Assembly (NCBI RefSeq): GCF_003704095.1
Contig: NW_020846227.1
Coordinates: 434,001-498,000 of the forward strand
Direction: 5' to 3'
DNA: 64,000 bases
From: Pocillopora damicornis
Lineage: Eukaryota
Both the position numbers and the translations under genes were made by a program. The notes below the pieces were generated by a model, which was not told the origin of the DNA, ran no database searches, and saw nothing but the letters and a program-made list of their open reading frames with translations. Below, in pieces: positions 4,653 to 61,205 of this stretch. The stretch's first letter is position 1, and the number at the start of each line of letters is the position of its first letter.

Positions 4653-7485
4653 GTCACAATATTCAACTGTCCAAAGCTCTTTCATACATTCTTCGACATG
4701 GTGCATCAAAAGAGGGGCTGAAAATGTCTGAAGGTAAATGTTTCTAGAATTGTATTATTGGTCAAGCCATGTTGGTTCACTTTGCTGCTGCAATGTTTAT
4801 CCTGGTACTGAGTGATCCAAGCCCTAAACAAAACTGGCTAACTTTGTCAAAATCATACACTGATGGCAATCAAGGGAGCCATCCCCACTTACTAGTAAGC
4901 AGTTGAGATCCTGCAATTGTGTAAGACTCAGAGTCATGGCTTGCTCTCCAAGCATTTGATTCATGACAAGCCAACTTGGAAGTACCAATTAAGCCCAGGG
5001 TAGATGGATATGGCCTCTGGAACAACATCAAAATCTGAATTCATGCACTCAATTGAAGACCTGCAAGACTTAAATTAATGTAAAAAAGTTCCACATTGAA
5101 TTTAAAAGAAAATTAATCCCATCAAGTAGTATTAACACTTTCACTCCCAAGATTCAAAATATCATATCGTCTCACCATCTGTCACACACATCTTGTATCT
5201 GAGAATTTGATGTTGTAAGTCTAGCAGTTCATTATATGTATTCAGTAATTTTCCTTTTCTTCCATCACCCATCTGTTTTAAAATGTATTGAGATTCTTGA
5301 GAGAAATGAATTATTATTATTTTTTTGGGCAGGAAAAGAATGGTTTACTCAGTGATTATAGAATATATTTGTTAGTATTAATTTGATATTTATGCCCACA
5401 GGATTTGTCTTTGTTGATGAGCTGTTAAAATTACGACAGTTTAAAAGATATTCTGAGAATGAAATCAGAAAAGTTGTTGATGAGAATGACAAGAAGAGGT
5501 TTGCCCTGAGACTTGATCCAGTGACAAACAGGCTGCAAATCAGAGCAAATCAAGGACACACCATCGAGGTTAGCATTTCTGCATTGAAAGGGATTAGGAA
5601 TGTTGACTTTCAGAAAAGAAATCTCTTTAGACAATCACGATGCAGGATTTCAGTTTTATGTTATATTATTAGGGCTTACAATATGACAATTCAATATCAA
5701 ACAGCCAAGTGATGAGAACAGCTATAAATGTTTACTAATAATTTAAAATTTATGATAATAACTTGAATAATTGTTCAGCCCAATATACATATGAAAAAAT
5801 ATGATCTAAACATTCGATGACTAATGAAGTGGGCCTTGGATCCAGCATGCACAACTTTTTCACTGACTTCTGGATTAAAGTGCAAATGGACAAAACAACT
5901 CCAGCCTTTGCTCAAATTGGCCAATGAAACTAAGGGATTATTTGTCACTAAATAACACTAAATTCTCAGAAAAAGATTCATGAGAAATGTGTTATGAGAT
6001 GTATCTTCATTAAGATATCAAGAGTGAAAGAGTTAATAATTGTTGGTTGATTTTTTTTTTTGGCATTTTAGGTTGATGACCTTGAACTTAATCCCATCAC
6101 AGATCCCTCCGATGCACCAGTTGTTGTGCATGGCACCTATCGTGAGTGTTGGGAGCTAATAAAAGCTCAGGTGGGTGTTTTTACTTTTTCACTATTTTTT
6201 TTTTGCTTTCCTTTTTCATCAACCTCATCTAGCTCAGTTGGTACTTGCAAAAAACACATTTTTTTCTCTTATCAGGGTTTGTCAAGAATGAGCAGAAATC
6301 ACATCCATTTTGCACCAGGAGAACCAGGGGAAGAAGGAGTCATCAGTGGTTAGTAAATTAAAGGTTATAAGTACAGTAAATGCTGTGCCTCTCTATAAGT
6401 TAATGATTTATTTTGCTAGACACTGTGCAATACATTTTTGTAATTTTAAAGAATAGAATACATACCTGTATTCTGAGGAAGGGCCAGTGCTTGAAATGTC
6501 AGCTTTTAAACTCTTTACAGTGGCCAATTTATGTTATCAACTCAGTTGATAACACTTAATTACCCTGTTATATTCTCCCACCAATGCGGCACCATTACCC
6601 CTCTTCATTCATTTTTTTTTTTTTTTTTTCAAAGAAGGGTAATTTAGTGTAAACATTTGAGTTGATAACCTAAATTAGCCTCTGTGAAGAGTTAATAAAC
6701 CCAGGTCTTGAGCATTAGCCCTTCTTCAGAGCTTAATAGGAAGGGCTAATGTCTGAAATGTCAGCTCACAAACTCTTTACTGTGGCTAATTTACCATATT
6801 AACTCAGTTGATAACACTTAATTACCCTGTTATACCCTTGCACCAAAGCAGCACCACAACTTATTTCAAAACTTACCCTCTCTAAGTATGTATTTGAAAT
6901 ACTTAACAAATGTTACTAATAAAATCATCAATGATGGCTCCATTGTAAGGTTCAAAGACAACCCTTTCAACAACTTATAGTAACACTGTGCCTTAATTGT
7001 GGTTTACATGTATTATGCACTTCTGGTTGAGAAGGTTGATTAAGAGTCCACAACTCCTGTTTAAATCAATTTTTTACATAATCTTTTTTTTTTGTAAGAA
7101 GTAATGACACTTTTGAAGCCAATCAGTCATTAATACCTGTACCTCAGTAGAAGTAGCTTTACAAAGAGCTAATCAGGAGTGTAACATCATAAGCTTAGGG
7201 AATATTACTAAGAGTACAAGTGGAGAAAAAAACAACAACAACCACAACAACAATAACAACAACAAATAACCAATCGAAGAAAACAAAGCAGAAAAAGGGA
7301 GGGATGGGTGACTGTTCCCATAATTTTTTGGCATAACATGTGAATAAACTGACCATTTCTAATCTTAACATGTGTCTGTGAGTCAGTCAGTTATTCTCAT
7401 TGTTTTCTTTTACTAAATTTAATTTGTAATCCTTTAGGAATGCGTTCAAGCTGTGAGATCCTGGTGTTTATTGACCTCAGAAAGG
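4653..7485 (+). CDS. TRPT1: tRNA 2'-phosphotransferase 1 (Tpt1/KptA family), partial. Exons ~4653-4733, 5402-5568, 6072-6170, 6276-6348, 7438-gap; possible first exon 3880-3939
   Basis: Spliced translation gives QLSKALSYILRHGA...NDKKRF...IRANQGHT...VVHGT...GLSRMSRNHIHF...GMRSSCEILVFID, the conserved Tpt1 motifs. Splice phases are compatible. The 3' end falls in the gap and the 5' end is unresolved. Confidence 0.92.
6470..6885. mobile_element. Degenerate Penelope-like terminal repeats with a hammerhead-like motif, in a TRPT1 intron
   Basis: Two forward copies and one inverted partial copy of the unit seen at 58281-58490 (ctgaggaagggccagtgcttgaaatgtcagc...tatcaactcagttgataac). Confidence 0.6.
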
Positions 7486-8277: not shown

Positions 8278-10851
8278 CTGAAATTCAAACACCCTTTCAG
8301 AACCACAATCACATATTGGAATGTCGTCTTCGCTAGGCTTGCCTTCATCAGAGACCCAGAGAGGTTCACCACTTTGGTGATAGCGCAAAACCTGAAGGAC
8401 AAAACAGGACATCTATCACAAAAAGTTCTGGTGTTTTACTAAGCTTGCAAAAAATTCCCTGTTAAAAGGGTTGTATTCCAAGAACTCGCACATGTGCTCT
8501 AACAGACTAATAATAACATTACTTTGTCTTTAAAAGAAGACTGTAATGGAGAGGGAAAAGGTCTTTACAAAAGTGCTAGCATTAAATTTTTTTTGTCAGC
8601 CCAGTTCATCCAAATGGAACTAGAACTAGAACTCTGGTAAATCTGAGTGGACAAAAAAGGAGGTTCCATAATTTACAGTACAGACTGAGAAAAATTATGT
8701 TAATGAGATATTTATAAATATATCTCTGGGGTCGAATAGAGGAGAAAGATTTCATTTCAAACCAACTTCTGAATTCAGCAGACTGTCCAGTGAAATACAG
8801 CCCACTAAATTGACCAATCATGGTGCATGAGTTAGATATGTAATGAAACAATTACCTCCACTACCCAAAACCCAATTAACAGACTTTAACAAGCAAAATA
8901 AGCATTTAGTGCCAAATGAAGGGGGGGGGGGAAGAGAATGTTTTAAGATTCTTTCTTACTCTCTCTTTAACAGACCTGTTTAGGTTCTCTGGTAATTCTC
9001 TTTTTGAATTTTCTAAACTGTTTATCAGCAAGTAAAGCTTCCTTTCCAAGAGAAGCTAAGGATTCTAGTTCTTTGTCACTTTCTGTATCAGTGAGCAGCT
9101 CATTTGCTCTCACAAACTGTTTGTATTCATCTAATCTGTCTTTTTCACTTTTCTCACTTTCATCAGTTAAATCTGGTTCTGTTTCAATAAGTAACTCATA
9201 TTCTGGAAAGAGAATTCTTCTATTGCTATACTTGTTGTCTGAAAATAAAATGAATGAATAAATAGATAAATAAAAGAAAACACAAACAAACTGAAAAAAT
9301 GCATAAAAACCAAAGTCAAATTTTATAACCTCCTAGGGAATATGTTGGAGGTATTAACCCTTTCACTCCCACAAGTGACCAAGATAGAATTTCTCCTTAC
9401 AATATCAATACAATATCAAGCAGGCAGGTGATGAGAATAGAGAAGAATATCAATTATGGGATTATTTGTGATTCAATACCAAATTCTCCGAACTAACATC
9501 ATAAGAATTGTATGGCAGATAGTAAGGAGAATTACTAATTAGATCTTGGGAGTGAAAGGGTTGAAAGAGTTTGATATTTTTCAGCATTAATGGTTTTACT
9601 GTTATATGTCTTGGTAACTTCTACAGGTTGGTGATTTTTGCTAAATATGTTCTAGCTCGTCATATTATTTTTTTTACATAAAAGCCCTACACAGCTTGTT
9701 ATGAAATTCAACCATTAAAAACCTTGAGACTTGAAATGCATCCTAATAAATGTTATCATCAATATCATCTTTTTAATAGTAATAAATGAACTAGGCAAAG
9801 TCCTCACACAATGCAAGATCTCTGCACAACCATATGCTTCATTATGCATAAAATTCTTGGATATAGAAAACAATTTTGAAATGATATATTGTCTTTTGGG
9901 CTATGGCTTGGTTGTAAAATAATAGAGGGTTTAACTAAAAACATTCCTGCATCCAATTTAGTACAACCTTACATTAAATAAATGTTCTGTAAAAGAGAAA
10001 GTGATGAAGAAATAAATAGGACAAATCACACAAACAAATGATAGAAGGCTATTGAAGAATTCTTTACAAATTCTTTACACCATTCTACTATATATATAAA
10101 CGTATAATGACTCTATTAGTAACCCTTCATCTCCCAGAGGTGATCAACATGTTCCTTTCCCTTCTTAATACCCATCTACTATCCAGAATAACTAATTTAC
10201 AAGGAAATGTATAGCAGCTAGAACTGACAATCAGATCTTGGGAGTTAAAGGTTTAAAATCACCTTGTAACAGTTGCTCTTTATTTTCCTGTGCGCACAGT
10301 TTCGGACACAAGTTCTTATGACCTGATTTCCAATCCACCGTCTGATGTTCACGGCCACAGTACTGTGCCACGTGACATTTAGAACATTTCTTATCCCCTT
10401 TACACCCGCACACATCGCATAAACTGATCCATGTTTTAGGTTTGAACTCTTCAGCTACACATTCCATAGACAGCTCGTTAATTTCGTCCAATTCTGGCGG
10501 CGGATTATAGCTGTAAAACTTGTTATCGCGTTTTAATTGACTTCTTAGTACAAGGAAACAATCGGTGTAGTTTTTAGAGTGACAATTGCCATCTTTACAA
10601 CAAAAAACGAAGATCGTTCGATGAAAACTTTGGTCATGTGGCATAGGAGCGTACACTTGTAAGAGAAATGCCATCGGTTTGAGGCAGATTTTGCACACCG
10701 TACAACTTGAATTGGGCAAATCTTGCAAGTTTAACCATGCTGGGGTTCCACCGATTTTGCTCGGAAAGAAGGCACTTGTCATCTGCAGTTTACGAACAGC
10801 ATCGTCACCAATTTCTTCTGCAAATCCTAATTCCACTTCTTTGGCCGCCAT
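8278..10851 (-). CDS. PDCD2: Programmed cell death protein 2 (MYND zinc finger plus PDCD2_C). Exons 10851-10263, 9238-8976, 8391-8278; last exon probably in the gap at 7486-7585
   Basis: MAAKEVELGF...FPSKIGGTPAWL...FLLQVYAP...FHRTIFVFCC; MYND finger CDVCGCKGDKKCSKCHVAQYCGREHQTVDWKSGHKNLC; then LFPEYEL...FRKFKKRITREPKQ|VLRY...PLW...IPICDCGSERVFEFQ. GT-AG phases are consistent. Confidence 0.95.
9354..9564. mobile_element. piggyBac-type MITE in PDCD2 intron 1
   Basis: Termini ttaaccctttcactccca ... tgggagtgaaagggttga form a near-perfect inverted repeat with TTAA-like flanks. Confidence 0.8.
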
Positions 10852-12460
10852 GTTGATTCACAAAGTTGACCGCTGACGAGGAAAGGTACGGGCTCTATCC
10901 CAGAGGGTAGTTTGAGGAGGGAGTGGGTAGGGATTTAAAAAAAAAAGTTAAAATGTGAGGTGTAAAAAAGAAATCTTGGTGCAACTGATAAGAGTTAGAT
11001 TCTGATCCGATTTGTACTTCAGATGCTTTACCTCTGAGCTATAGGAGTCTGATGGCAGGCTAGAGTATTTCACTAGGTCTATGGTGACAAACTTCCTGCT
11101 TACAGGTAGGGTAGGAAATGTGTCGATATGTGATGCTTATGCCCAGTGACATGGAAATAAAGATGGTCAAATGAAGATGATCAAATGTAGAGGATCAAAC
11201 AGTAGATTACATACAAGATACCCCTATTTAGAAAGCTCTTTGATGCTGTCTTGAATATTTGAATCAATCACAACAAATTTGCCCAAGTCAATAAAATTGA
11301 TAGTTATATGTATGATAATTTTACATAATAATAATAATAATAATAATCAACAATCACTGAATAAGCTTGGGGAAAATGTTGGGATTAAATAGCATCATAC
11401 CACTTCTGCATGCCAATTCAAGCTACATGCATTCATCCAAATAAAAACAAATGTGTGACTTAAAAAAAACAGTCTGTATCTGAGAGGGTAACTTTAATTT
11501 TTCATAGATTAACTATAGTACACTATAGTTATAACAAAGTATCTATTAAATAACTAAACAAAAAAATACACCCCTACTCACCTTAAATTCTATTTTTATT
11601 TATTGTGAAGTTATGAAGTATCAACATCCTACAAATATGTGTTCTGATATGTAATTTAATTTTAATACATTGATTTTTCCACATACTTACAAAAAGTTAT
11701 GTACTCAGTTTAAATACTGTCACTCAAACTTCTGGCCAGGGAGGAAATGCATTTACAATAAATACAGTGACATACTTTTACTGCTATATGTAATATCAAC
11801 AGAATGAATTTGTTGTGAAGCTGAATGGGATACATGACTGTATAAATTCATTATTTTTTATGTCTTGGTAGGGTTATCACAGCTTTCAAAAATACCTCAC
11901 ATTAAAGCTCAATCTAAATATGTAGGAAAAAGTGAACTTAGAATAATTTACTGACACAATAACTTAAATGAAGCCTGAGAAAGCAGAAACAATTTTTGCT
12001 CCATAAAAAGGCCTCATAGTCTTCATATACTGACAGAGCTGTTCTGAAAGTCTACCTCATGCTTTCAAATGCTTTCAGTGGAAACAGAAGCATATGACCT
12101 AGGTTATAAGCTCAGTTCTGGTTGTACCGTATGGCTTATTGGCAAATATTACCAGTACATGTCATGTGCAGTAAGCGAGTCATCTTTCATTCAAGGCTGA
12201 TTCCTTGGCTAATTTCAAGCTTTTTCTCTCAGGGTTTTCATTAAGTTTCAAAGCAAACAGCAAAAACTGCAAGGTAGATGGCTAACAAAAGTGCAATTTT
12301 CACTCCAATGTTCTTTAAGTTTCAGAAAATTTTGCAGGAAATATTGTTAGAAATATATACAGTGAATTTTGCCCCTAATTGGCTCTTAATATAGAAATCC
12401 CAGTATCTACTTGCATCTTTTTTGCTGTCTCTACATTCCTCTAAAACACCGTTCCCTCCT

Positions 12461-13991
12461 TTAATCAAACCCTCCTCCATCATCAAAACCTCCGCCATCA
12501 AATCCACCACCATCATCAAACCCCCCACCACCATCAAACCCACCATTGTCACCATAATGTTCATGATACTCAGGGCCTCCATAGTGATGGTGCTCGTGAA
12601 AGTGATCCCCACCACTATGGAAGTGGTCGTGATCATGGATATGGATATGTGACCCGTGCCCATAGTAATGAGGTCCATGCAGAGCATTTGCCATTACTGC
12701 TCCGGCTGCCATTCCAACCAAGAGGTCTCCACCTCTGTCTCTATCCTGGACCACAACTGTCTGAGGTTGCTGAATGACCCCAGGGGTTCCATATCCAACA
12801 GGCTGACCAGGATAACGCTGGTTGTAGTAAGCTGGTGGTGGTCCACGTTGTTGTGGATAGACTGCTTGTCGTGGGTAAGATGAGGGATATTGCACTGGAA
12901 ATAGGAAATTTATCAGAAACTGTTATGAGGGAGACATTGTTTGATAAATATCTCAATGTTTCTGATGATGGAGGTGAGATTTCAGAAAAACAAAGTTAAC
13001 TGTTAATTCCACAGTCAGATACCATTTATTAAGTTATTTGTTACATTAAGCACAACAGAGGCATTATGTGACAAAATGTTGGAAAAAAAATGGAAAATTT
13101 TCTGCTAAGTTGCAGGTAAGCTGGCGTACAAGTTAAAACACCACTTTACTTAATATTTCATGCCATCTTCAATCATGCTCTCTTCACACACAACAACCAT
13201 CAGTGGTCAGCATTTGCCAGTAACAGTGCACTGTTACCCTCTGATTCCAGCTAATTTTACAATCTCGCCCACGAGCTGAGACTTTTCACAAGAAAGAGTC
13301 TCGTATCTACCCCTCGGCAGAAAACTTCCCAACAATTAACATACATACGGTGGCGATACTAACCTACTGTTTGAGTTCCACTGTATTGTGGTGTTACCAC
13401 AGTCGATTGCTGAGTTGTTATCTAATAGTAAACAAACCAGAAATAATAATACGGTTTACGTTACAGAAGTTACTAATCCTGCGTTATATCTTTTCACTAT
13501 AGTTGTGAGAATTCAAACGACAAGTATGTCTTTTCCAGATCAATGGCTTCCATTTCTAGCTAAAGCATCGTTAGGGAGCAAAGTATACAGTTTTCAAAAC
13601 TCCACAAGGTTATAATAAGGGAAAATTTAAGGAATAACTTGGGAGGAGGAAGAAACAATTCACTTGACTAATTCTATTATAGGCATTGGTGTTCAACAAA
13701 ATTGGTGTCGATGTCTGGACGTTAAGTATACGCTTGTCTTCATTACTTCCTGATTAATGAAACGGTGCCAACTTCAGCTTAACATGTCGAATCAAGCATT
13801 CTGCGAGATAAAGCTCGACTGGATGTTCTAAAAATCAGCCTCAAAAGAGAAATTAAAACAAATCTAGTCACCTGCGTGACAGCAATTTAAGGGAAAATAG
13901 TAAATCGAACGATTGCAACTTAGAGAAAAGATGATTTCACTCTGGTTTGTACCCTTACCACAGCACCCGACGAAGAACTCCCGCAACCCAT
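12461..13991 (-). CDS. Uncharacterised 174-aa low-complexity protein (acylation motif, Pro/Gln/Tyr-rich region with PPxY, Gly/Ala hydrophobic segment, His-rich tract, FDGGG tail). Exons 13991-13959, 13421-13364, 12894-12461
   Basis: Three GT-AG exons join in frame (phases 0 and 1): MGCGSSSSGAV|ITTQQSTVVTPQYSGTQTV|VQYPSSYPRQ...GPPPAYY...GDLLVGMAAGAVMANALH...HIHIHDHDHFH...GGFDGGGGFDDGGGFD*. Confidence 0.8.
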
Positions 13992-14912
13992 GAAGAAACA
14001 ATTATAAACGAAAAAGCACCATAGTAGAAAATCGTCTACATTTGCACAACATTTATCACGAGTATCGAAGATTGAACGAAGAAAATCGATTACTAGCAAC
14101 TAATTCTAGTCATAGCGCCTGCGTATGACGTGCGGGTTCCATGGTAACGATGGCAGCAAAAACAGCTGGGACATTTAAAGTGAAAAACATGACGTAGTAT
14201 TTTGGAGAAATTTTGTATATACTTCCCTTGGCCTGTGAAAACAATTCTTCCACGCATCATTCGAGATTCTCGCATCAGACGCTGATCCTGGCATCAGAGA
14301 GGTGTTTTTCCAGGTTATTCAAAAGAGCATTCCAGAAATCGTACCGTCTCAGGTTGAGAATCTTCACGGAAAATTCTGATTTTTTCCGCTTTACTTCTCG
14401 TATTCGTGAATAATAAAAAATAATTTTCCTTCTTCGACTGCCGGCTCGATTAATTCGGCTGAGCCCGAAATTCACAAACAATTTCAATCTTAAAACAAAA
14501 ATTCCTTTCTTCGACATAGTGATATAATGTGGCGGAAACCGAATGTCGATTTTAGATATTAGTCTTCTTGTTGTTGTTGTTGTTTTTGTTCTTATGTTTC
14601 AGTTTGTCATATTTTAGTTGCTTGGTTCTCTGTCTATCTTCTTTATTTTTCATCTTTTTTCCTCGCCGGTAACACTGATGGGGTGTATCTGATTACGTGT
14701 TAAGGATGTCAAAACTGGTGGAAATTTTACACTTACTTTTTAAGTTTGTTCTTACTAGTAATTGCTCAAGATTATCCGAATCTAAACTACCAACCGCAAC
14801 AATAAAGTTTATAATGTCAAATACGACTTAAATCTGCGGTAATGTTATAGAGTCAACAAAAGTTTTCAATACTTTTCAAATGCAAGGCCGTTACAACTTG
14901 GGCAATGTAACG

Positions 14913-15292
14913 TTAAGCTACACCATAACACTTCAGTTTTCCCAATGTATAATATCCTTTTTCGTGCGAGCCATTTAAGTCTCCGAGTCTAATTTGTGTT
15001 ACAGGCAGAACTGCCTTGTCCGTCAACAGACCGCCATCCTCTCTCCAGCCACTGAAACTGCCTCTACAATTACACATGTGACCGCTGGAACAAGAATTTG
15101 TTACTCCGCATGCGCACTTATTGTCATGTCCTGTAGCTCCTCCCCAAAAGTTCATCCGCGTTCCACTGCGTGACACCCACCAAGCATAACCAGCCTCGAA
15201 AAACGCTACACCAGCTGTACACTCAAAATTGAGGAACTGTTCGCAATTTTGTGAGACTCGAGTTAGTGCTGCTAGTTGAGCAATACTGACTC
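14913..15292 (-). CDS. C-terminal Caspr/CNTNAP-type fibrinogen-like domain of a collagen-Ig-FBG family gene (partial, runs into gap)
   Basis: Open frame VSIAQLAALTRVSQNCEQFLNFEC...AWWVSRSGTRMNFWGGA...CACGVTNSC...WREDGGLLTDKAVLPVTQIRLGDL...GYYTLGKLKCYGVA*, which has the pattern of the neurexin-IV/Caspr fibrinogen-like module. Confidence 0.8.
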
Positions 15293-15493
15293 NNNNNNNN
15301 NNNNNNNNNNNNNNNNNNNNNNNNNNNNNNNNNNNNNNNNNNNNNNNNNNNNNNNNNNNNNNNNNNNNNNNNNNNNNNNNNNNNNNNNNNNNCGTATTTA
15401 TGCCTCCCTTGTAATTACATAGGCCCAGGCTTATATAGTTTTCGTAAAACAAAGACTTTGCTTTTTCACAACCTCGCCAAGGCAGACAGTGTT

Positions 15494-16914
15494 ATGGAGA
15501 GATCAAAGATGACCCCAGTTGATAACAAGCTGGTGTTTTCATCCTTATTTCTCTTCGTTATTTGCTTCGCGGGACTGATTCATGTCGAGATCGAACTTTA
15601 CGCTCATCGACAAATGCTTCAAGCCTTGAGTCAACCAAAAGAAGAGAAAGTCGAGCTGAGGAACACAGAAAACGACGAAAAAACGAATGAGATGATCATG
15701 TTATTCCCTTACTCGCATAAAGGTGAGTTTAAGTGCAAAACACTTAGAACGGTAGAACGACCTCTAACTAAAATTGGTTGATGCAGATCCTGAGTAACGT
15801 TCAAAAAGTTGGGAAGTCCGATTTGTAATGTGGAAAGTTTTCATTTGAAATTCGTTTAAACGTTCGTCTCCTCGTTGTTTCTTGAATACCTCTATAGCTT
15901 AAAGTAAAGAGCTGTCGACCCAAGCAATTGTGTTTTTTGTGTTTTTTAATGGTGTAAAGATTCACTAGGTCAGCCTCAACACATCAATCAACAATCAAAG
16001 AGTCACATGCTACTTTACTCAGATGACGATTTGTCTGGTTCTGTTTCGTGTCGTTTCAGTTTGATTTCAAAACATGACATTCCATGCGCAAAAGCTGTTT
16101 TACGAATTGAAGTTATCTTTTGTCGTCTAATGGGTACTTTTATTGAAGTACAACCTAGAAATTTCATTTATTTTTCGCTCGAACGGCCCGGAATGGGGCT
16201 AATTCTTGATGGAATTCACAACAGGAGTAAAATAAAGGAAGTTTCAGGGGAAAATTAATACGCTGGGGATTACAGCTTTGAAACAGTTAAAAATACTTTG
16301 AACAAAATCGTTTTTTTAGAATAATTTTCACATGAGAAGATAAATAAAACCTTAAGAGACACACGGAAAAAAGTCAAGTATCACAACCAACAAATCGAAT
16401 TATCGCCGTTATCGCAACTAATCTCTGGTTTCGACTCAATTTCTGTCGTTTTGTGGAGTTCACTCATTTCTTAGACAGCTGCTGGAAATCGAGCCAACTT
16501 GAATTTGAGTTCGAAATGACCCGGCTTTCAAAATGAGGCCTTGTTCATGGTAATAAATATCCATTTCCGTATGAGGGCCTCGCACTTAGCTTCGTTTTAA
16601 AACGGGCTCTGAGTATTTTCCAAGTGGTCTAATAAAATGAATGGAACTTCGCCGAACTAATTCTGTGAAGTTTCTCGCAGAACCAAAAATTCGTTACAAA
16701 CGGCACGTGAAAGCTACAGACAGGAGATTGAACGGCAGTGTGACCATCGATCGTGAAGCGATCAGAAAAGAAGTACGACTTGTAATCAAGAGCCAGGCCT
16801 GCAGTGTTCATTGCCCCAAGAGCATCAGGGGAAGACGAGGCAGACCTGGTCAAAGAGGGCCCCCAGGTAAACATGGACCACCTGGGCCACAGGGAGTAAA
16901 GGGACCTAAAGGAA
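15494..16914 (+). CDS. N-terminal part of a type II transmembrane collagen-domain protein (exons 15494-15722, 16681-gap)
   Basis: Short N-terminal tail, hydrophobic anchor LVFSSLFLFVICFAGLIHV, stalk, furin-type RYKR, CSVHC, then Gly-X-Y repeats GRRGRPGQRGPPGKHGPPGPQGVKGPKG. Phase-1 GT-AG junction. Confidence 0.8.
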
Positions 16915-17048
16915 NNNNNNNNNNNNNNNNNNNNNNNNNNNNNNNNNNNNNNNNNNNNNNNNNNNNNNNNNNNNNNNNNNNNNNNNNNNNNNNNNNNNNN
17001 NNNNNNNNNNNNNNTGCAACGTGGAATTGACGTTGTTTTTCCTGTTCA

Positions 17049-17261
17049 GAGGGTGTCAATGAGGTGATAGCTTTTACGGCTAACGGTTAAAGTTTTGGCC
17101 AATTTACGGCTAACAGTTAACGTCTTTTCATTGTTTCCATCAGACATTTTTTACGGTTAACGTTTTTTTTCAACTAACGGTTAAAATTTGTCAATTTTTA
17201 CGCCTAACGGCTAAAGTTTAAGGCCGTGTGATGGCTATCAGTTAACCCCATTAAGGACCTC
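17049..17261. mobile_element. 213-bp MITE with internal tandem subrepeats (ttttacggctaacggttaa)
   Basis: Inverted termini gagggtgtcaatgaggt / accccattaaggacctc, flanked by duplicated tgttca. The paralogous block near 21690 lacks the insertion. Confidence 0.75.
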
Positions 17262-18006
17262 TGTTCAAGGAGTCACGGTGTGCTTGCCAGAAAAGGAATA
17301 ACGATTCAGGATTTCTAGAGCCTTAGACTTCGGATTAGTCCACTTCTTCATTTGACTTTTCAGATATTTATCTTTCAATGGGTGCTGACAAAGAGATAGG
17401 AAGTGCTTCTTTTCTCGTACCCAAGCCTCTCTCCAGGCTTATATGTTGATCTTGACAGATAATAGATTGGCAGCCTTCCTTCCTTCCATCCATAGTCTAG
17501 TCCAAGGCTAAATAGGGTCATACAAACAATGAAAAATGCTGTTTTTGATGGTATTGGAATCTACTCTGTTTAGATGATTATTTCTAGTATTCCAAATGCT
17601 ATGCTTAACATTTATAGTGTAATTAGAAAGTTACCTCCAATTTCTAGAGCTTTGGGAACGCCATGCTAGGGATGACACTTGCAGGGAAGGACATAACGAA
17701 TGGCATTAGAGAACTTGCTCCACACCAATTTGAATACTTTCACTAATATAAAGACTAAGGAATAGCCATCTTTCAGAAAATGCAACAGACCTTCCTTGGC
17801 TAGCTGCCTTGTTTATTGACGTTATGTAAGGGTTGGAAAACCAATGGGTTCTTCGCAAAAGAAAGTCAAGCTAAAGAAATAAAAAAGTTAGCTTTCTAAA
17901 ATCTCTTTAATCAAGTCCTTACTTAAAATTAATGCAACTGAATTTCAGAAAGATTGATATTTTTCCAAGTTCAGTCACACTTGCTGCACTATACATATTA
18001 AAATGT

Positions 18007-18716
18007 AAGCCACGTCATAACACTTGAGTTTTCCTAATGTATGATATCCTTCTTCTGATCTGGGTCACGGTCACCCATGTCACAGTACACATTGAAGGGT
18101 GTCACGCCTCCTTTTCCATCAGGATCAATCATATAAGTACCTGAAGATTTTCCTCCACTGTGTGTCTTTATGTCACTACAAGAGGTTGGTTTTCGAAATT
18201 CAAGCACGGTAGTTGCAATAACAAAGCGGTGAATATTTCGTGTGATGCAACTGTAGGATCCAGCATCGTGGCGAGCAACATTTTTTAAAAGTAGAGAGCC
18301 ATTTGAATAAAGGATATGACCTGAGGGCAGACCTTGACCGTTCCCCTGCCATACGACTTCTCTTGCTCCTTGTGGTTTGCAAGTCAGTAACACATTTTCT
18401 GAGGTGAGGCCAAACGTTTATGGGGAGGGAGTAATGTGAACTTGGGTTGTTCAAACACGGTGACTTGTGTATGGGCCGAGTCCTCGTTAAGAATGTTCTT
18501 TGCCGAACATGTGTAGTCTCCTCTGTCTGTTTTAGTCACATTGGTTATTTCCAATCTGCCATTAAAAACTCTTAATCTTTTGGATTTACATGTGACCGAC
18601 TGCTTTTCGCTACGTGACCGTTGGTGTCGGCTGACCGATAGCTTGGCAAACCAGACTCACCTTCTATCCTTCTTCAACGATAACTGATGAGGGTTTTTGA
18701 ATGATGGATGCACCAA
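18007..18716 (-). pseudogene. Pseudogene of the Ig-Ig-fibrinogen-like exon of the collagen-Ig-FBG family
   Basis: Ig motifs (VSLVCQAIGQPTPTVT, DRGDYTC, DAGSYSC) are interrupted by TAG/TAA stops and frameshifts. The FBG start (SCSDIK...SGTYMIDPDGKGGVTPFNVYCDM) is fused by deletion to the extreme C-terminus (EGYHTLGKLKCY). Confidence 0.8.
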
Positions 18717-20022
18717 CTGAATGAAAAACCGAGAGGTAAAAAAAGGTAAGCAAACTTTATCTATCTTCTCATGTGAAAATTATTCTAAAAAAACGTTTCT
18801 CTCCCAAGTACTTTTAGTTTTTCAAAGCTGTAATCTCAAGCGAATTAAAGCTCCTCCTAAGCCTTTATTGTGCTCTAGTTGTGAATTCCATAAAGAATTA
18901 GTTTTTCCGGCCGCTCGAGCGAAAAATATTGAAATTTTTTTAGTAATTCATCAATAAAAGTAACATTAAGGGGTAAAAGATAACTTCTTTTGGTAAAACA
19001 GCTTTTGCACAAGGAATGTTATATTTTTAAATCAAACTGAAACGACACGAAACAGAGCCAAAATAATCATCATTTGAGTAGAGCAGCACGTGACTCTTTG
19101 ACTGTTGACTGATGTGTTGAGGTTAACCTAAATAATTTTTATACCGAAAATAAAACTCTGCATTTTAAGTCTTGATCAGACTCGTCTTGAAAGCTGAAAG
19201 AAAATAAAATGTGGGCATCAGAGGAGTTTTTTTTTTTCCTGTCGTTAATTCTCAAAGGCTCAGTATCAATCTTAACAGAGTGTCATTCTGTTTGCTTACG
19301 ATGCAAAAACATCCTCTCTTATAGTTACGCTTTTGATTTGAAATAAAGGGTTAAATAAAAAAAAATTTTAAAAAAATAGACAGGAAGTGCTTCTTTTCTC
19401 GTACCCAAGCCTCTCTCATGGCTTATATGCTGATCATGACAGATAATAGATTGGCAGTCTTTCTTCCTTAGTCTGGTTCAAGGCCGCAATAGGGTCATAC
19501 GAGTGAGGAAGAATTCTGTTTTTGATGTTATTGAAATCTTTTCTGTGTAGCTGATCATTTTTAGTATTCCAGATGCTATGCCTAACATTTGTAGAGTAAC
19601 TAGAAAGTTAGCTCCAATTTCTAAAGCTTTGGGAACGCAATACTCACGATGCCACTGGTAGGAAAGACATAACCAATCTCATTGGAGATCTTGCTTTACA
19701 CCAATTTGAATTATTTCACTAAAAAAAGACTGAGGAATAGTCATCTTTTAGAAAATGTCCGACCTTCCTCGGTCAAACCTTGTTTATTGACGTAATGTGA
19801 GGGTTGGAAAACCAATGGAGTTTCTTCGCAAAAAAAAAAAAACTTGATCACCCAATCAAGCTAAAGAACTGAAAAAGTTAGATTTTTTAAAATCTCTTGA
19901 CTCAACTCCTTCCTGACAACCAAGGCAACTAAAATTCAGAAAGATCTTTTTTGTGTTTCCAAGTTCAGTCACACTTGCTGCACTGTACTAAGCTGCTGTA
20001 CTGTATATATTAAGATGTGGCC

Positions 20023-20504
20023 TTATGCCACACCATAACACTTGAGTTTCCCTAATGTATGATATCCTTCTTCCGTAATATGATTCAAGTCTCCGAGTAT
20101 GATTTGTGTAACTGGTAAAGCAGACTTGTCTGTCAACAGACCGCTGTCTTCTCTCCAGCCACTGCCACTGTTGTGACAATTACACTTTTTGCCATTTGAA
20201 CAAGAATTTGTTACTCCACATGCGCACATCTTATCAGAGCCTGATGCTCCTCCCCAGTAGTTCATCTTTGTTCCATCACGTGACACCCACCAAGCGTAAT
20301 TTTGCTCGATAAAAGCTACGTCATGGTTGCACTCGAACTTGATAAACTGTTCACAGCTCTGTGAGACTCGAGTGAGCGCTGCCAGCTGAGCGGTGCTGAC
20401 TCCAGTGTATCGCACATCTTTTCTGTAACATCCGCGTCCACCACATCCAGGAATGTTCCCAACATGAGTTCTTCTCTCACTGTCATGACTGATGACCGTC
20501 ACGC
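20023..20504 (-). CDS. C-terminal Caspr-type fibrinogen-like domain, second copy with an intact frame (partial, runs into gap)
   Basis: VTVISHDSERRTHV...CEQFIKFEC...WWVSRDGTKMNYWGGA...CACGVTNSC...EEGYHTLGKLKCYGVA*, a paralog of 14913-15292. Confidence 0.8.
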
Positions 20505-20787
20505 NNNNNNNNNNNNNNNNNNNNNNNNNNNNNNNNNNNNNNNNNNNNNNNNNNNNNNNNNNNNNNNNNNNNNNNNNNNNNNNNNNNNNNNNNNNNNNNN
20601 NNNNTTTTTTTTAAACCTTTTTTTCCTTGTTGGTAACACTGATGGGGTGTATATAATTACGTGTTAGAGATGTCAAAATTAGTGGAAATTTTGAACTTAG
20701 CTTTTCAGCTTGTTTTAATAATTGCTCAAAATTATCCGAATCAAAACTACCAACCGCGGCAATCAAGTGCACAATTTAAAATGCGAC

Positions 20788-38938: not shown

Positions 38939-40387
38939 TTATTTGCACTCGGACAGGAAAGTGGTGCGCGAAGCGGGAGAAGCGTTTTCTTTTAAGAAAG
39001 AGAAGGTAGGTCGTAATGCAGGAGAACCAAATGGTATTTTAGGTACTGTGCTGAACGCAGACGGGAAAACAGAGTCACTATTTGTCATGAACCTGTCTGC
39101 TGAAAATGGGGAAGACGGTTTTGAACTCGGCCACTGTGGTTCCATTGTGGGACGTGCATGGCTGACGGGGAAATGGCCACTTTGAGGGAAAGACGGTGGT
39201 AGAACGCCAAACCCGTGGCAGCGGCTTGGAAGGCTCATCTCTGGTGATGAAGAAAAAAGGCATCGGATGCTAGGAGATGGGTGTGGAAGAACTGGCGTTG
39301 GATGAGGGAGGGACGAATTACAGTTCATTGTACAGGACATTCCCAATAGGTCGTTTCTTCTCATATGCGGAGACAAAGACGCTGAGAATATGGATGGTGG
39401 ATAGGGCCAGAAACTTGAACAGAAACCAGCTTGAGATGGGTCCAAAGGATACCTTGGAATTGGAGAGATTCTCTGTTGCCGTTTTAGCGCTATACGGTTT
39501 CTGGACGATGGAGGATTTCGTCGTTTAAGCTTCCCTGTCGTACCACCGATGACCACATCGTCTGCACTAGGATCTAACATCCAGTAATTGCCTTTACCAG
39601 GATCGTCGTAGTGGCGAGGGATTTTCACGAAACATTTGTTGAGGGAGAGGTTGTGTCTGATGGAGTTCTGCCAACCTTGCTTGTTATTACGATAGTACGG
39701 AAAATTCTGCAAAAAAAAACAAAAAAGAACAAAAAAATTGATAATCAAATTAGTCCGAAAGGCCAGATGTCAATTCGCAAATTAGTCATGATATTGATGA
39801 GCCGGTTTCACGTTGTTCTTTGCGGTAAACGTTACAAATAAATAATATTATCAGTGCTTAATTTGGATAATTTTTCTATCCGATGGCTTTTTTCGATTAC
39901 GCTGAAATGTAACAAGCTCGTTTTGTTTTAACCCACTTTGGGTTAGATATACCTTACATAAAATCCACAGTTAAACTGACTAACTGTCAATTGTACTCAT
40001 AATATTACTCATATTAAAAGCTTAAAGAGTAAAAAAAAAACTTAGTAGTGAAATAAAGACAGCACGTTGGATACTGACCTTCATAATGAAATCGTATATA
40101 CCACTCAGAGTGAGTCTTTTCTCCGGTGACCCGCGAATAGCCATCATTATTAAAGCATTGTACGAAAATGGCGGCTTCTCAAACTTTTTCTCTTCTCCCC
40201 CTTTGCTTTCGCACTTTCCTGTTTGCTCGTCCTCTTTGGATTTTTCAGACTCTTTATCTTCTTCGCTCACCCTCTCTTGGTTAGCAACCGAATGGCCATC
40301 CTGGTTTCCCGAAACCTTCTCGTCCGAAGTTGTTATCGTTTCTTGAGAACCCATTTCTTGATTATATAATCCAACCTGATCTTTCAT
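38939..40387 (-). CDS. FOXG1: Forkhead box protein G (FoxG/BF-1/sloppy-paired class), 358 aa. Exons 40387-40079, 39706-38939
   Basis: [34 protein letters not shown]|[63 protein letters not shown] is diagnostic of FoxG. The intron is phase 0 GT-AG, and an in-frame stop lies upstream of ATG 40387. Confidence 0.95.
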
Positions 40388-42222
40388 GACCACTACAATG
40401 TCCGTCGTGCTTGTAAAAAACTGTGTACAAATGCTATCAATTCAACGAGACCTGGTTGTCACAATGTTTACACGACAGCGCAGGATAGACGAGTGGCAGC
40501 TTCTCAACTGACGGCGTTAATTTGTTGTCAGTATTTTTGACCCAATGTTAACCAAGCAGCGTAATTGATACGGTGGTGTACCATTTTTTATCGCGAGCCA
40601 ATCAAAACGCCAGGTTACAAACAAAGTGCAGTGACATGAAAGAGACATCAGGGTCGATGATGCGGTCGTTCATTGTGTTTAGTGTTTGTGTTAATAATCT
40701 ACGTTTTATTGTTTGCTTCAAAGAGGTGCTAAATTCGCAACCAATAACTTTGCCTAAGAGTCCAGTGTGGCTCCGCCTTTTTAACGAAACTACACGCGGG
40801 GGTTACAATCAAACAATGTAATGAATAGCACAAGTAACCCATACTGTCTTCAAAAGAGCTATAATTCGTGATTAGTAAGGAGTTAGGTTTTTGTTCTTTC
40901 CAGCCCATTTTGAATATCTTAGATCATCGTTGTTACATGTATTTCCTGCCTCGCCGCTGGTGGCGTCTGTATAACAATCCTTCGCGGTTCATTTTACCTT
41001 TGGGGCATGCCTGATTTCTTCTCACTTGAGAATCATGTGAGATGCCACGCAGAACCGACATGTCTTCTAATCTTCAGAGCCTTTCCCTAAAGAAAAGGAA
41101 GATGACTTTGTGTGCGGGATAATGGCCTGTTAATAGCGCATGCAAACAAACAAACATGAGTGCTTCTGATATGTGGCAGTTTGGCGATAGTAAAAATCAA
41201 AGATAGCTTCAGTTTGAGATTTCGCCAGACATGTTCGAACGCTTTGGTGGATATTAATATTCGATATTATCCTATCCTTTGAATGAACTGACTTTGACAA
41301 GTTTAGTCAGTTTTTCTGTTCTTTGCCATTGTCTTAACTAACGAATGGGACGGCAGTAACTGAAAAGTTAATTTGATCTTTGTAACGTGGTGGGAACTAT
41401 GTTTGAATAAATGAAACTCGGTGTGAAGATCAACTTTGCAAAAATTTGATTGTAGATATGAAGTAAATTACTATATCGAACTTTCAAAGCAAGAACATTA
41501 GGAGCCAGCTTTGTTTTGAAGACTGAAGACAAGATACATGCCACAGTCACGAATGGCGTGATGCACGCAGGAGCGCCTCCTTTGTTCCAAGTAGCTATTG
41601 TTCAGTTAAATATACCAACTCCATGTGCTTCGCGAGATGGCCACTTCTTTTGGGTTGCAAAGATTTCCAACTGGGGACTGCTGATCGTAACTACATGAAA
41701 ACCCGGGGGATAAAGGTGAAACGAGCGTGGGAAAAAAACCAAATTCACGACATCCAAATCACAATGCATAAAGTTATTTATAGGTACGTCTCTGTTTGAT
41801 ACTAGAAAATTAACTCTCTGGTCTCGAGTGAAAGAGACAAACAGGGCACTTATATTCACGAAAACAAAGGAAAAAGAACGGATCGACATATAGTTAAGAC
41901 ATCGTTGTTTAGCCACAGCAGAAATTTTCTGCCATGTTCATTAAATTGACTCATGAATGTTACTTGTTTATTGTCATTTCGTGGTTTTACAGCAAAATTT
42001 TCCTACTGCCGTGAGGAAAATAGCTAACAAATGAAATTTCGGGAAGAGCAAATGGTTCCCTGATTTCTATCGGATCACAATGTTGACAAAAATCTAAGAA
42101 ATTCTTTGTTTTCCCGTTAATTTCTTATTCAACTTTTCACTTAATAAACGCTGGTGACCAATAATGCTTATAACAAAAATGACAGAGAACCATTACAGAA
42201 AGAAATAAAAAAAAAACGGTTC

Positions 42223-45383: not shown

Positions 45384-46298
45384 TCACTTGTAGATTATTA
45401 CTACGGCACTGCGTCCTTGCACAAACTTGTCGCCGTTTTCTTTGGTAAAAGTCAATGAATCGATAAACTCAATCACACTGTGATACAAATCTGGCTCGGC
45501 AGTCGCCCGGAAATTTTGCTGTTGAGTCAAAAAGTCAATCAACAAGTCACCTCTTTCAGTTGGCTCCTCGGCAAGGCAGCTGGTCACGTTGATCTCAAAC
45601 TGTTCCTTGAGGGGAACGGAGTACTTCCATCCGTGTTTCTCAGCAATAGCAACAAGCTCCTGATCCGTGCGGAAGGACATGTCCTCTGAACCACAACTCA
45701 GTTTTCCCTTAAATTTGTGGCTCACCAGGGCAATGTATGAATCCTCAGCTTGAACCAGACACAATATTACCCCACTGTCGGTTGTCAGATGCTCTTCGAA
45801 ACAGGATCGCAGCGCGTATTCCACATCCAAGTAATAAATGCTGTGGTAAAAGTGAATGAGCTGAAAACGATTCTTTTCAGCAGTTTCCTCGTGGAATTCA
45901 CGAAATGTTTTCTGGTGCCATTCAAACGAGATACTCTCGGTAATCTGTTGTAACAATGGCGGCAACGAAGAAACCTTCGCCTTGAATTCATCGAGGAGAC
46001 AGGAACTTGGTTCAACGATCACATTCTGGAGTGCAGGCTTCTTGCCCTTTTTCGACGTAAAATATTCCCCTATAGTTGGTAAAATTAGCAAATCCTTGTC
46101 ACCCGGGCCGCTACCAATTCCCAAAATTTTAAGGGGCTCGCTCGGGTCAACTGTGTCTATAACTTTCTTCAGAGCTTCAGCGGCAGCGTCTTGATTCAAG
46201 TGAAGTAAAGCTGATTGTCTGATGTTGGAGTTGTCTATAAGTGCCCGGAAAGACCTCTTGTACATTTCCTCCGATTCCCATAACGGCACTTGAGGCAT
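45384..46298 (-). CDS. Histamine N-methyltransferase-like class I SAM-dependent methyltransferase, 304 aa, single coding exon
   Basis: Uninterrupted ORF with motif I KILGIGSGPGDKD, VIVEPS, FEWHQKTF, FQLIHFYHSIYYL and LIDFLTQ, which resemble HNMT. Confidence 0.85.
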   Translation of the reverse strand: MPQVPLWESEEMYKRSFRALIDNSNIRQSALLHLNQDAAAEALKKVIDTVDPSEPLKILGIGSGPGDKDLLILPTIGEYFTSKKGKKPALQNVIVEPSSCLLDEFKAKVSSLPPLLQQITESISFEWHQKTFREFHEETAEKNRFQLIHFYHSIYYLDVEYALRSCFEEHLTTDSGVILCLVQAEDSYIALVSHKFKGKLSCGSEDMSFRTDQELVAIAEKHGWKYSVPLKEQFEINVTSCLAEEPTERGDLLIDFLTQQQNFRATAEPDLYHSVIEFIDSLTFTKENGDKFVQGRSAVVIIYK

Positions 46299-46637
46299 TT
46301 CTGAGAGAGGCTAAGTAATATGACGGTGTTTATGAGGCAGCAGCGAATCAGTAATTTTTCAGATGATGCAAGCAGAATCATGCAACTATGTATTAGCGAA
46401 GTCAATTAAGCTACTAATGCACACAGATAGGTTAGCACTTTCATACACGTGCAGCCTACGAACTAACTTCATAACGACCCCCTCTCTCAAAATGTTTTTA
46501 TAAGCAACTTTTGTAGAAAAAGTGATACAGAAGGCAANNNNNNNNNNNNNNNNNNNNNNNNNNNNNNNNNNNNNNNNNNNNNNNNNNNNNNNNNNNNNNN
46601 NNNNNNNNNNNNNNNNNNNNNNNNNNNNNNNNNNNNN

Positions 46638-54500: not shown

Positions 54501-56319
54501 ATGAGAGCGGAGGAGTGAAATTAAAAAACAGAAAGGTTTGGGTTGAATCGTGTTAAATTCTCAACGTCACCCGGCCTGGGCTTTCCTCGTTTTTGCTCTA
54601 CCGCTGCTTTTGCGCCGTTCAGTATTTCGCTCTGTTTTATGCCATAAGTCAGTGAGTGACGTGTCCGTAGATGATTGGTGATATCTAACACACGTTAAAA
54701 AAATTATCATAATTTTTTACACATGTGCAGTTGGCACCTTTTCATAGGGCGGGAAATCCTTAAATAACACCGCAGGTCATATGCTTAAGTGTATTAATAG
54801 ACGTCCTCATAGGCATTGTCCTGGTGATTGCCGTATATCTCTTGTTTTCCTTAGGGGTTACGTTTTTCCTCTTTCCTTTCTACTTTCCTACTCGATCTTA
54901 TCTTGATCCATGTTAGGTATTCGGTTTGTTCAAAGGCATGGCACCTCCTCTTGCTGCTGTGGCCCTGCAGAACGCCATTTTATTTGGAGTATATGGTAAT
55001 GTACTGAAAATGTTCTCATCCGAGAAGGGGGACAAGCCAGCGCTGTCTCACGTCTGTGTGGCCGCGGCTGCCTCGGGAGCCGCTCAGCTCTGGGTGGTGA
55101 GTCCTATGGAACTTATCAAGATCAAACTACAGATGCAAACCGAAGGTACAAGCTAGTTGAGTTATTTTCAAATCGTTGTCGAAATTAATTTTTAAATAGT
55201 TTTGCTTAAGCTCGCTTTTTGATTGGTCAAGAAATTTACGTCATTTATCTCATACAATCAAATGCTTAACGTTAGCCAATCGCGACCTGATCTCCTGCGT
55301 TTTCCAGCGCTTTAGACACTTGGCGCGTTTTTACTTTCAATCTTTATTTGCAACTTGAGAACTGCTAAGAATGGTAAGGCGGAAACTTGTGGAATTGTAC
55401 TCATGTCTTTGATGAAAAGTCATGTCGGGGATGGGAAAAGTGTTCAGAGGAACTTGCTCGACATGATGAAGTTCGACTTAACCCTTTATCACCCAAGATC
55501 CAATTAGCTTTCCTTCCGACTGACTGCTATACAGCTCCTTGCAGTTAGACAAGAGAATTTGGTTTTACGCTAAGATTACATCCGTTAGCTGAATATCATA
55601 TCTGCTCTTATTAACTGTTGACGAATAGCATTCAGAGTCACCATCAGAACTTACATGTTAATCACTTCTGGGAATAAAAGGTTTAGATCGAGCAGAGATT
55701 TCATTTCAGCAATTCAGGCAGTATGCCAATATTGATATATATAACGAGCTAAGTCATGTTTTTGCTTTTGTTTCAAAATTATGACAAGCGTTTTGCTATA
55801 GTTTCGTTAGGAAAGCATGGGAAATCTTCGCACTATCGCGGAGCTCTAGATTGCATCCGCAAGATTTACAAGACGGCCGGTAGCAGGGGATTTTTCCAAG
55901 GAGCTACACCTCTTGTTTTCCGGGATATCCCGGGCTTTGCCGTTTACTTTGCATCATACGAGATCCTTCTGGATGCGCTCTCACAAAAAAAGTCACGCAC
56001 TGACATGCAACCGCTGGTTACAGTGTTCGCTGGAGGCCTTGCTGGAATGATAAGCTGGTTCTCCACTTTTCCGTTTGACGGCATTAAGTCTCGTATGCAG
56101 GCAGATGGGAATAAAGGACTTTTTATCTACAAAGGAACTGCGGATTGTTTTCTTCAAACGTACAGGGCAGGAGGCTTGAAAAGTTTTTACGCGGGCCTAG
56201 GACCATGCTTACTACGAGCGTTTCCACACAACGCAGTTCTTTTCCTTGTGTACAACTTGGTCTCGAACTGGTTAGGAGAATCGCATCTCAATAATGGCCA
56301 CAATTTAAATGTGGATTAA
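51590..56319 (+). CDS. Mitochondrial carrier, SLC25A45/A48/A29 subgroup, ~302 aa. Exons 51590-51629, 53722-53765, 54359-54445, 54917-55145, 55811-56319
   Basis: MEVGREFIAGWCAG|CAGVIVTQPLDTVK|VRMQ...|VFGLFKGMAPPL...SPMELIKIKLQ...|YRGALDC...RDIPGFAVYF...FPFDGIKSRMQ...LLRAFPHNA. It has three Px[DE]xxKx[RK] carrier signatures, and the phases are consistent. Confidence 0.93.
52160..53045. mobile_element. Foldback/MITE-like element with long degenerate G-rich terminal inverted repeats, in carrier intron 1
   Basis: The left arm (ttttttgggacc...ggggtgggat...agggtgggaggcagact..ttgtt..cagggaggg) matches the reverse complement of the right arm at 52904-53045. Confidence 0.6.
53872..54060. mobile_element. 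Short MITE with ttcacacg...cgtgtgaa inverted termini (PIF/Harbinger-like)
   Basis: gcctgattcacacgtg ... cacgtgtgaactggg, with internal gcaaat/gcaaac hexamer repeats. Confidence 0.45.
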
Positions 56320-60011: not shown

Positions 60012-61205
60012 ATGGAGAGCAATGAGAGAAAATTACTCATGGAAGAATCCGAGAGCCGTGTCATTAAATGTGTGATCGTGGGAGACGGCGGAGTTGGTAA
60101 AACTTCCTTGCTTATAAGCTACCTTATGAACGGATTTCCCAACGATTATATTCCGACGGCTTTTGACGACTACAGTGGTAGGTCGAGGTTACGAATGAGT
60201 TCTTGATGGCCATGTTTCTGCGGTGAAGAGAATTCTCGTGCCATTCATTATTTATTTTGTTGTTATTTCAGTGTCGGTAAAAGTCGATAAGGTGCCTTAT
60301 TCACTGCAATTCTGCGATACTGCAGGACAGGTAAGTCGCTTTTGTTTCGAAATTATTTATTTCGATTTTACTTTCCCTGAGATCTGTTGCATTTATGTCG
60401 TAATTCTTCTATTTGCAATAAAATTAAGTAAATAAAAGACTGTGTTAAAATTTGTAAAATGCCTTGTGAATTCATGGTTCGTGACAGGGGTTTAATTACT
60501 AGCACAGTAAGCAATGTGTTTCTTTTTTAATAATTTATCAAACCGTTTCGGTTCAATGAAACATATTCTTTCGTTGTATATTGATTTAATGCTCAATTAA
60601 GCTAGCAATTGAACGAAGTTAAGAAATATGCCGATCAAAGTTACCTCACACAAGTCTCAAGGAGCGCGATGTAATTGCCTCGTCTTGAAAGAACACAAAG
60701 TTTAAAACAGTTTGTTTACATTGCAAAAGTGTCTTAATTTGCATGCGCTATCTAGTTGTTATGTTGAATATTATATTGTTTATTTTGCAAATTTAAGGAG
60801 GACTTTGACTCTCTCCGGCCGCTCTGTTATCCATCAACAGACGTTTTTATTGTTTGCTTTTCCGTGGTTTCGCCGACATCTTTCGCAAATGTTGCACAAA
60901 AATGGCTCCCTGAAATACGTGGCTATTCGTCAAATGTTCCTGTCATCCTTGTAGGAACACACTGTGATTTGAGAGCGAACGTTCAAGAACTAATACGCCT
61001 TTCTGACCTTGGACAAGGACCTATTACGCCGCAGAAAGCCGAGAGCCTAGTCAAGAAGGCAGGGGTCGTTTGCTATATTGAAACTTCAGCAGTAACTCAG
61101 AAGAACTTGAAATCCGTTTTTGATGAAGCAATTATTAGCGGATTAAGACCACCAACGTCTTCAAGAAGAAGTGACCTCAAAGGTTGCGCTTGTACTGTGA
61201 TGTAA
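60012..61205 (+). CDS. RHOU: Rho-family small GTPase, RhoU/RhoV (Wrch/Chp) class, 210 aa. Exons 60012-60177, 60272-60330, 60798-61205
   Basis: [48 protein letters not shown] and [15 protein letters not shown] include the RhoU/V-type PTAFD, CDTAGQ and GTxxDLR variants. The protein ends in CTVM. Confidence 0.88.

Follow-up and report, generated by a model that had tools for sequence, protein, structure and literature searches.

The window analysed here, a 64,000-nt stretch of the Pocillopora damicornis genome, carries on its minus strand a real, spliced coral gene whose product of 174 residues appears to be undescribed. Our preferred explanation, which is tentative and to which we give a probability of about 0.35, is that the protein is a doubly acylated, disordered scaffold attached to a membrane from the cytosolic side, where it would bind Zn2+ or Cu2+ through His and Asp residues and cluster in a manner that depends on metal and pH.

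Gene structure and splicing

The initial annotation had added two small upstream exons to the open reading frame, and the resulting three-exon model is borne out: the 525-nt coding sequence is open, it encodes a 174-aa product, and both introns are of the GT..AG type. All features of the gene and its promoter lie on the minus strand. The coding part of exon 1 (13959..13991) specifies residues 1-11, exon 2 (13364..13421) encodes a T/Q/V-rich linker (residues 12-31), and the coding part of exon 3 (12461..12894) supplies residues 31-174 and the stop codon. Six metagenome loci contain the gene; exon 1, with MGCGSS and the same donor position, recurs in three of these (L034, L035, L036), and L034 has a matching exon 2. 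Alternative splice sites were rejected, as they cause frameshifts or lack GT/AG.

The two predicted junctions (13959/13421 and 13364/12894) were recovered as joints, to the nucleotide, in contigs from five of the eight runs compared (X1, X7, X8, X10 and X13), representing five studies. The evidence for splicing comes throughout from contigs, from which expression level is not derivable, and for X7, X10 and X13 the RNA origin is a guess, X10 being labelled 'probably DNA'. Joints at intron 1 have a short side of just 29-30 letters and are weaker than those at intron 2 (58-59 letters, in X8 and X10). Neither junction was seen as a joint in X5 or X6, and a contig of X16 passes unspliced across the boundary of exon 3 and the intron (12464-13312). 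A Logan protein of 174 aa (P0015) spans the two junctions; it departs from the model at two residues of the tail.

The stop codon is followed by a long 3′ UTR (11360..12460) defined by contig ends, and its own end is uncertain: contigs of X1 and X8 stop near 11360, that of X13 extends to 10969 and that of X10 to 10665. One X10 contig (10665-12894) links exon 3 and the 3′ UTR to the first exon of PDCD2 and omits 11046-11470, a gap with non-canonical ends; the contig may represent read-through or a deletion allele.

Relatives and genomic neighbourhood

A single-sequence search yielded seven proteins from 764 candidates, a search of a representative library of 1.84 billion sequences gave four, and a profile search gave eight strong matches and a weak tail. 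Two relatives carry names. One is Actinia tenebrosa XP_031567318, annotated as 'glycine-rich cell wall structural protein 1.8-like'; the other is a gene model of Stylophora pistillata (P0039), in which the gene is joined to the C-terminal half of PDCD2. Judged by the records that carry names, the family spans corals and an anemone. A 74-aa form (P0009), reduced to the core, a short stretch of His and the tail, is either a fragment or a short paralogue. Protein and pattern searches of genome G000 found no paralogue besides the gene's own locus, although introns or divergence could hide one, and scans of viral and bacterial loci confirmed no relative, the matches to loose patterns being mostly off-frame noise. 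A GMxAGA pattern did retrieve a family of long Ala/Gly-rich ORFs with a common repeated domain (L013, L014, L031 and L032, on C1433 and C4196 of G000), which is unrelated to the gene.

The protein had been called an orphan that fits no named animal family. The second part of this description holds, since Pfam, NCBIfam, PDB and the ESM Atlas contain no match above threshold. Exon 3 hits no Pfam family and ten A2 members give just sub-cut-off matches; NCBIfam has nothing for P0015; the best ESM Atlas score (0.85) belongs to an unnamed entry, with no usable named match; and a PDB match to a His-tagged enzyme was rejected as a product of chance and the tag. In the narrow sense, however, a protein with a conserved coral and anemone family is no orphan.

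The gene that follows downstream in the window is PDCD2. Because it adjoins the present gene but begins with a separate first exon (∼10851) and has a spliced contig to itself (X6), the fusion in P0039 is probably an annotation error, one that points to conserved gene order. P0039 lacks both the N-terminus of PDCD2 and the P/Y region of the present protein. For the window, a fusion was rejected: the stop codon at 12461 is kept in all coral relatives, and none of the joints listed fuses the gene to PDCD2. The first PDCD2 intron also holds a MITE-like element (9356-9562, with a partial copy at 10211-10258) that has 16-nt perfect terminal inverted repeats; its summed contig depth, from tens of thousands to more than 400,000, indicates a very high copy number.

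Judged by appearance, the other neighbours presumably include pyruvate carboxylase (1135-2151), a tRNA 2'-phosphotransferase-like gene (5362-5712), a forkhead gene of FoxG type (38939-40441), a histamine N-methyltransferase-like gene (45384-46310), an SLC25 carrier (55753-56319) and a RhoU/V-like gene (60768-61205). We take the region 14913-20610, which is interrupted by assembly gaps, to contain at least two tandem gene copies that bear collagen-like and fibrinogen/contactin-associated-like exons.

Protein segments and selection

All of the motifs described in the initial annotation are present in the product: MGCGSSSS, GPPPAYY, the hydrophobic segment LLVGMAAGAVMANAL, HIHIHDHDHFH, HFHEHHH and five GGFD units. 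MGCGSS (13974-13991, within exon 1) is a predicted signal for myristoylation of Gly2 and palmitoylation of Cys3. It is conserved in all four relatives that are full-length and start credibly (P0004, P0005, P0007 and P0039), as well as in L034, L035 and L036; P0008, a distant relative with 9 His, starts without it and is possibly a truncated call. GPPPAYY (residues 48-54; 12824..12844), which contains the PPxY motif, lies in a presumably disordered region rich in Pro, Tyr and Gln and is not kept in all relatives. QQPQTVVVQ (residues 72-80; 12746..12772) is a conserved, β-prone segment, in which Q72, P74, V77, V78 and Q80 are invariant across the 14 rows of alignment A4.

Next comes a short hydrophobic helix rich in Gly and Ala, with the spacing G91xxxG95xxxA/S99 (residues 87-103; 12677..12727). 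Hydropathy in this segment reaches 1.89 for the best 15-mer and 1.09 for the best 19-mer, the latter being under the usual transmembrane level, and the helix is probably too short and too mild to cross a membrane. Neither a signal peptide nor a hydrophobic span of 19 residues is evident in the protein sequence. The His block (residues 107-145; 12551..12667) has 14 His, 6 Asp/Glu and no Lys/Arg, arranged as three HxH runs with Gly turns between them; P0004, P0005, P0007 and P0015 have 14-21 His. Five GGFD units make up the acidic tail, which extends to the C-terminus (12464..12544) and varies in unit number among relatives. The tandem GFD pattern has three matches in the window, compared to none in 100 shuffles. 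Lysine is absent from 13 of the 14 rows of A4.

Exon 3 is under purifying selection, with dN/dS values of 0.055-0.094 against each of four orthologous coral loci (L034, L037, L038 and L039). Comparing regions, for which these four related loci offer 25-39 codons per region, we found dN/dS to be highest in the P/Y region (0.23-0.30), the least constrained part. Values were 0.03-0.07 for the core from TVVVQ to the helix (defined in three of the four comparisons), 0.029 and 0.039 for the His block (the other two of four comparisons being saturated at synonymous sites, with pN of 0.03-0.04), and 0.007-0.13 for the tail. Selection is thus strongest on the helix core and the His block and, in the majority of comparisons, also on the tail. 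The hydrophobic helix and the His block are conserved.

An AF2 model contains a single helix (residues 87-101) and no strands; its mean pLDDT is low (43.6), which, coming from an input alignment of 14 rows, is no proof of disorder. A predicted trimer of residues 66-145 with zinc scored 0.00 against a mark of 0.32, with the alignment unused, and this result is evidence neither way.

A tentative model: an acylated, metal-binding scaffold

In the scaffold reading, acylation, membrane side, metal binding and clustering are predictions. Following removal of Met, myristoylation of Gly2 and palmitoylation of Cys3 would tether the protein, much as double acylation at G2/C3 or G2/C4 is reported to anchor RP2 and RNF11 (PMC6678300, PMC7697665). 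The 15-residue Gly/Ala helix would sit in the membrane surface or pack on a partner rather than pass through the bilayer. The His block would chelate divalent metal without folding, in the fashion of the disordered His/Asp loop of IRT1, which is reported to bind Zn and Mn at nanomolar levels without folding and to control ubiquitination (PMC12203963). Metal bridges between adjacent tethered chains, along with Tyr and Phe acting as stickers, would then concentrate the protein, while the PPxY motif would be an accessory that the protein can do without, serving its turnover or the recruitment of a ligase.

The pattern of constraint favours the C-terminal half of the protein over the PPxY motif. 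Small, palmitoylated, low-complexity CYSTM proteins have been linked to metal tolerance, but the paper concerned doubts chelation as their mode of action and admits that the mechanism is unknown (PMC10840359). His richness may serve something else, such as β-strand pairing or pH. The alternatives considered below overlap in part.

A putative RFX site upstream of the gene

About 157 nt before the ATG lies a 13-bp stretch resembling an RFX X-box (14136..14148), one base short of the 14-bp form, and close to it a 9-nt GC-rich element (14115..14123), presumably NRF1-like, that exactly matches the L034 promoter. L034 and L035 have a 14-bp X-box at about −149 and the same GC-rich element at similar spacing, in flanking DNA that is otherwise unalignable, and L036 has an X-box-like stretch at −21. 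A ciliary or flagellar membrane protein (compare cystin, CIL-7, RP2 and calflagin) would account for these sites: controlled by RFX and delivered by its acyl chains, it would act in scaffolding ciliary vesicles or in shedding them, a role compatible with metal binding. In flies, a conserved X-box is reported to predict RFX targets (PMC2375033), and several ciliary proteins are said to be targeted by double acylation (PMC6678300). The 14-bp class is enriched ∼23-fold in G000 (256 versus 11 in a reversed control, with palindromes counted twice).

The window's site, however, departs from the published consensus (PMC2375033), and the 13-bp class to which it belongs is barely enriched in G000 (11 versus 4). 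L034 and L035 are near-identical, so they count as one independent orthologue, and although no other local alignment of the upstream regions scores higher than the X-box/GC block, 56 of 1000 shuffles reach it. Twenty-eight 14-bp sites were examined; a Pfam match lies near 14 of them, and one neighbour, a dynein light chain, is plausibly ciliary, with one additional weak Kelch/DRC7 match. None of ten 13-bp sites is clearly ciliary by its top neighbouring ORFs. We regard the promoter signal as a hint rather than as support, and a ciliary function as unlikely. Several of the 14-bp sites examined sit between exons and not at promoters. The window holds a second X-box-like sequence, a 14-bp palindrome at 59578-59591, flanked by ORFs that we take to be mitochondrial-carrier-like and Rho-like.

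The PPxY motif and NEDD4-family ligases

A link to the WW domains of NEDD4-family ligases, proposed in the initial annotation, is weakened by the comparative data. Thirteen rows of A4 cover the motif, and nine of them, anemone included, have PPxY (one row lacks coverage). In the other four it is absent: L034, L037 and L038 read GPPPQGYY, where a one-residue insertion creates PPPQGY, and P0008 is without the motif. Since L034, L037 and L038 form one supported clade (98/97), PPPQGY represents a single loss and P0008 a second absence; P0039 was left out of this count because its P/Y gap probably stems from the same faulty model as the fusion.

These losses, and the position of the motif in the region of highest dN/dS, count against a protein that serves chiefly to recruit or activate NEDD4-family ligases at a membrane, akin to RNF11 minus its RING or to evectin-2 with acyl chains replacing the PH domain, a reading that we consider rather improbable. 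The window's protein, moreover, has a single PPxY, and PP/Y runs are common in such regions. The retention of the motif in an anemone and the near-complete lack of lysine are consistent with an adaptor, as are precedents reported for RNF11 (PMC7697665), evectin-2 (PMC5665887), yeast Ydl012c (PMC10840359) and Wwm1 (PMC1557994).

Histidine spacing and possible self-assembly

HxH spacing occurs 9 times in P0015, compared to a shuffled mean of 4.7 (p ∼0.006), and it exceeds what composition predicts in the coral rows generally (p 0.0002-0.015). Such a register, together with an invariant TVVV-type segment and flanks rich in Gln, Tyr, Gly and Phe, would suit a self-assembling structural protein in which TVVVQ and the HxHxH strands form a membrane-nucleated cross-β filament or condensate with a His ladder. 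But neither the anemone protein P0007 (6 versus 5.5) nor P0008 (3 versus 1.6) shows the register more often than chance would give, which weakens the case for a fixed amyloid ladder, and the AF2 model lacks strands. We consider this explanation doubtful.

Resemblance to phage-type lipoproteins and DUF2076

The core of the protein weakly resembles small phage-type lipoproteins and DUF2076. A conceivable but quite doubtful interpretation is that the coral protein is a stand-alone version of an old membrane-active module (P/Q-rich region, TVVV, Gly/Ala helix, β-prone segment and charged tail) that it shares with DUF2076 proteins, with a nematode PH protein and with small lipoproteins of phage type; the work would then fall to the helix, and His enrichment would be late. 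A lipobox protein, P0032, matches at E 8e-4 and scores 35 bits on a tail-free profile (0 of 300 shuffles), and P0007 matches phrog_3559 over the core at E 1.1e-5. In IMG/VR, a 10-codon core pattern matched a single protein, a jumbo-phage lipoprotein in which a Gly/Ala stretch follows. Positions ∼102-264 of Pfam DUF2076 are collinear with P0007, P0038 and P0040, and once tails are trimmed and bias correction is switched off, the helices of DUF2076 align to that of the coral protein (0-24 of 500 shuffles), at scores of 1-7 bits for DUF2076 and P0040.

With bias correction on, however, DUF2076 and P0040 match through the GGFD tail alone and the helix does not rise above shuffles; the targets had been picked by the same profile, so the helix alignment obtained without correction is partly circular. 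DUF2076 scores 13.8-17.4 bits against a cut-off of 38, the best member being P0007 (13.8 bits, E 0.061). Only one of five proteins reaches E < 0.001 with phrog_3559, and P0015 gives no match. A looser pattern returned one such lipoprotein in 37 viral matches and none among the bacterial matches listed, of 120, and tblastn of P0032 and P0007 against phage genomes came back empty. A search of G000 with phrog_3559 gave no match to the gene, and one with DUF2076 gave no match. In L060, a 247-kb phage contig, the small lipoprotein ORF (1321-1812) directly follows an ORF at 641-1324 that, by its TIGFGD signature, we take to be potassium-channel-like.

Least probable is a combination of these ideas, a stand-alone lipid-tethered metal/pH switch in which an IRT1-type loop, set free on a helix-strand module common to phage and bacterial lipoproteins, would assemble on possibly ciliary membranes as Zn/Cu or protons rise.

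Novelty and implications

Among the papers listed by literature searches aimed at the protein, none describes it, a weak negative. The motifs that compose it are all of known kinds, and proteins of low complexity confined to a single lineage are common. Should the protein indeed bind metal, corals and anemones would possess a dedicated, membrane-tethered protein responsive to Zn, Cu or pH, short and encoded by a single-copy gene, which would bear on copper toxicity and on cytosolic pH shifts in reef corals. Its occurrence in Actinia, which is skeleton-free, argues against an origin for calcification; Actinia also lacks algal symbionts. Public annotation is misleading here, with the Stylophora model fused to PDCD2 and the Actinia record naming a cell-wall protein, and expression atlases may mislabel the gene as a result. 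The parallel with lipid-anchored phage-type lipoproteins would matter if homology were established.

Comparison with known systems

RNF11 resembles the coral protein in its reported Gly2 myristoylation, palmitoylation of a nearby Cys and PPxY some 40-50 residues in (PMC7697665), the coral modifications being predicted. It differs in that the coral protein has no RING (no Cys/His pattern) and no lysines, its PPxY is lost in some relatives, and no sequence match between the two was found. Evectin-2 (PLEKHB2) likewise has a membrane-targeting head and a P/Y-rich region with PPxY (PMC5665887), whereas the coral transcript starts with MGCGSS and matches no PH domain. Pattern searches of G000 found no evectin-like paralogue. 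The coral helix may resemble the evectin C-terminus.

In a nematode PH protein (P0040), TVII, a Gly-rich hydrophobic stretch, a β-prone segment and a GGFD tail follow in the same order, but the match (E 2.2) is significant solely by the tail. DUF2076 (PF09849), whose occurrence in mitochondrial Mix17 has been reported (PMC5714876), is similar in segment order and GGFD tail; it falls far under the cut-off, and its N-terminal helical part is missing from the coral protein. The phage-type lipoproteins (P0032, the L060 ORF, phrog_3559 and phrog_21570) share an N-terminal lipidated Cys, predicted in the coral case, QQPxTVVVQ and a Gly/Ala-rich stretch. They are, however, exported proteins with a lipobox and basic tails, whereas the coral protein has a cytosolic acylation signal, no hydrophobic leader and an acidic tail. 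The C-terminal tails of yeast Wwm1 and plant SRC2 may resemble the coral protein, but the latter has neither a WW nor a C2 domain. Wwm1 is reported to retain PPxY (PMC1557994).

The CYSTM/CYSPD proteins (yeast Cpp1-3, plant CDT1/PCC1) are likewise small and of low complexity, are reported to use an acylation anchor instead of a transmembrane span and to be linked to metal tolerance, and include one yeast member with PPxY and Rsp5-dependent turnover (PMC10840359). The P/G-rich composition of the coral protein fits this group, and its acylation is predicted. Those proteins are anchored by 5-6 Cys clustered at the C-terminus, whereas the coral protein has a single Cys among its 174 residues, in third position; it also has an additional His block and acidic tail, and no Pfam match. 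In the ZIP transporter IRT1, a disordered His/Asp loop likewise lies near the membrane, where it could sense metal and feed ubiquitination (PMC12203963). The coral block differs in forming part of a separate protein with no transporter, and in having 14 His rather than four.
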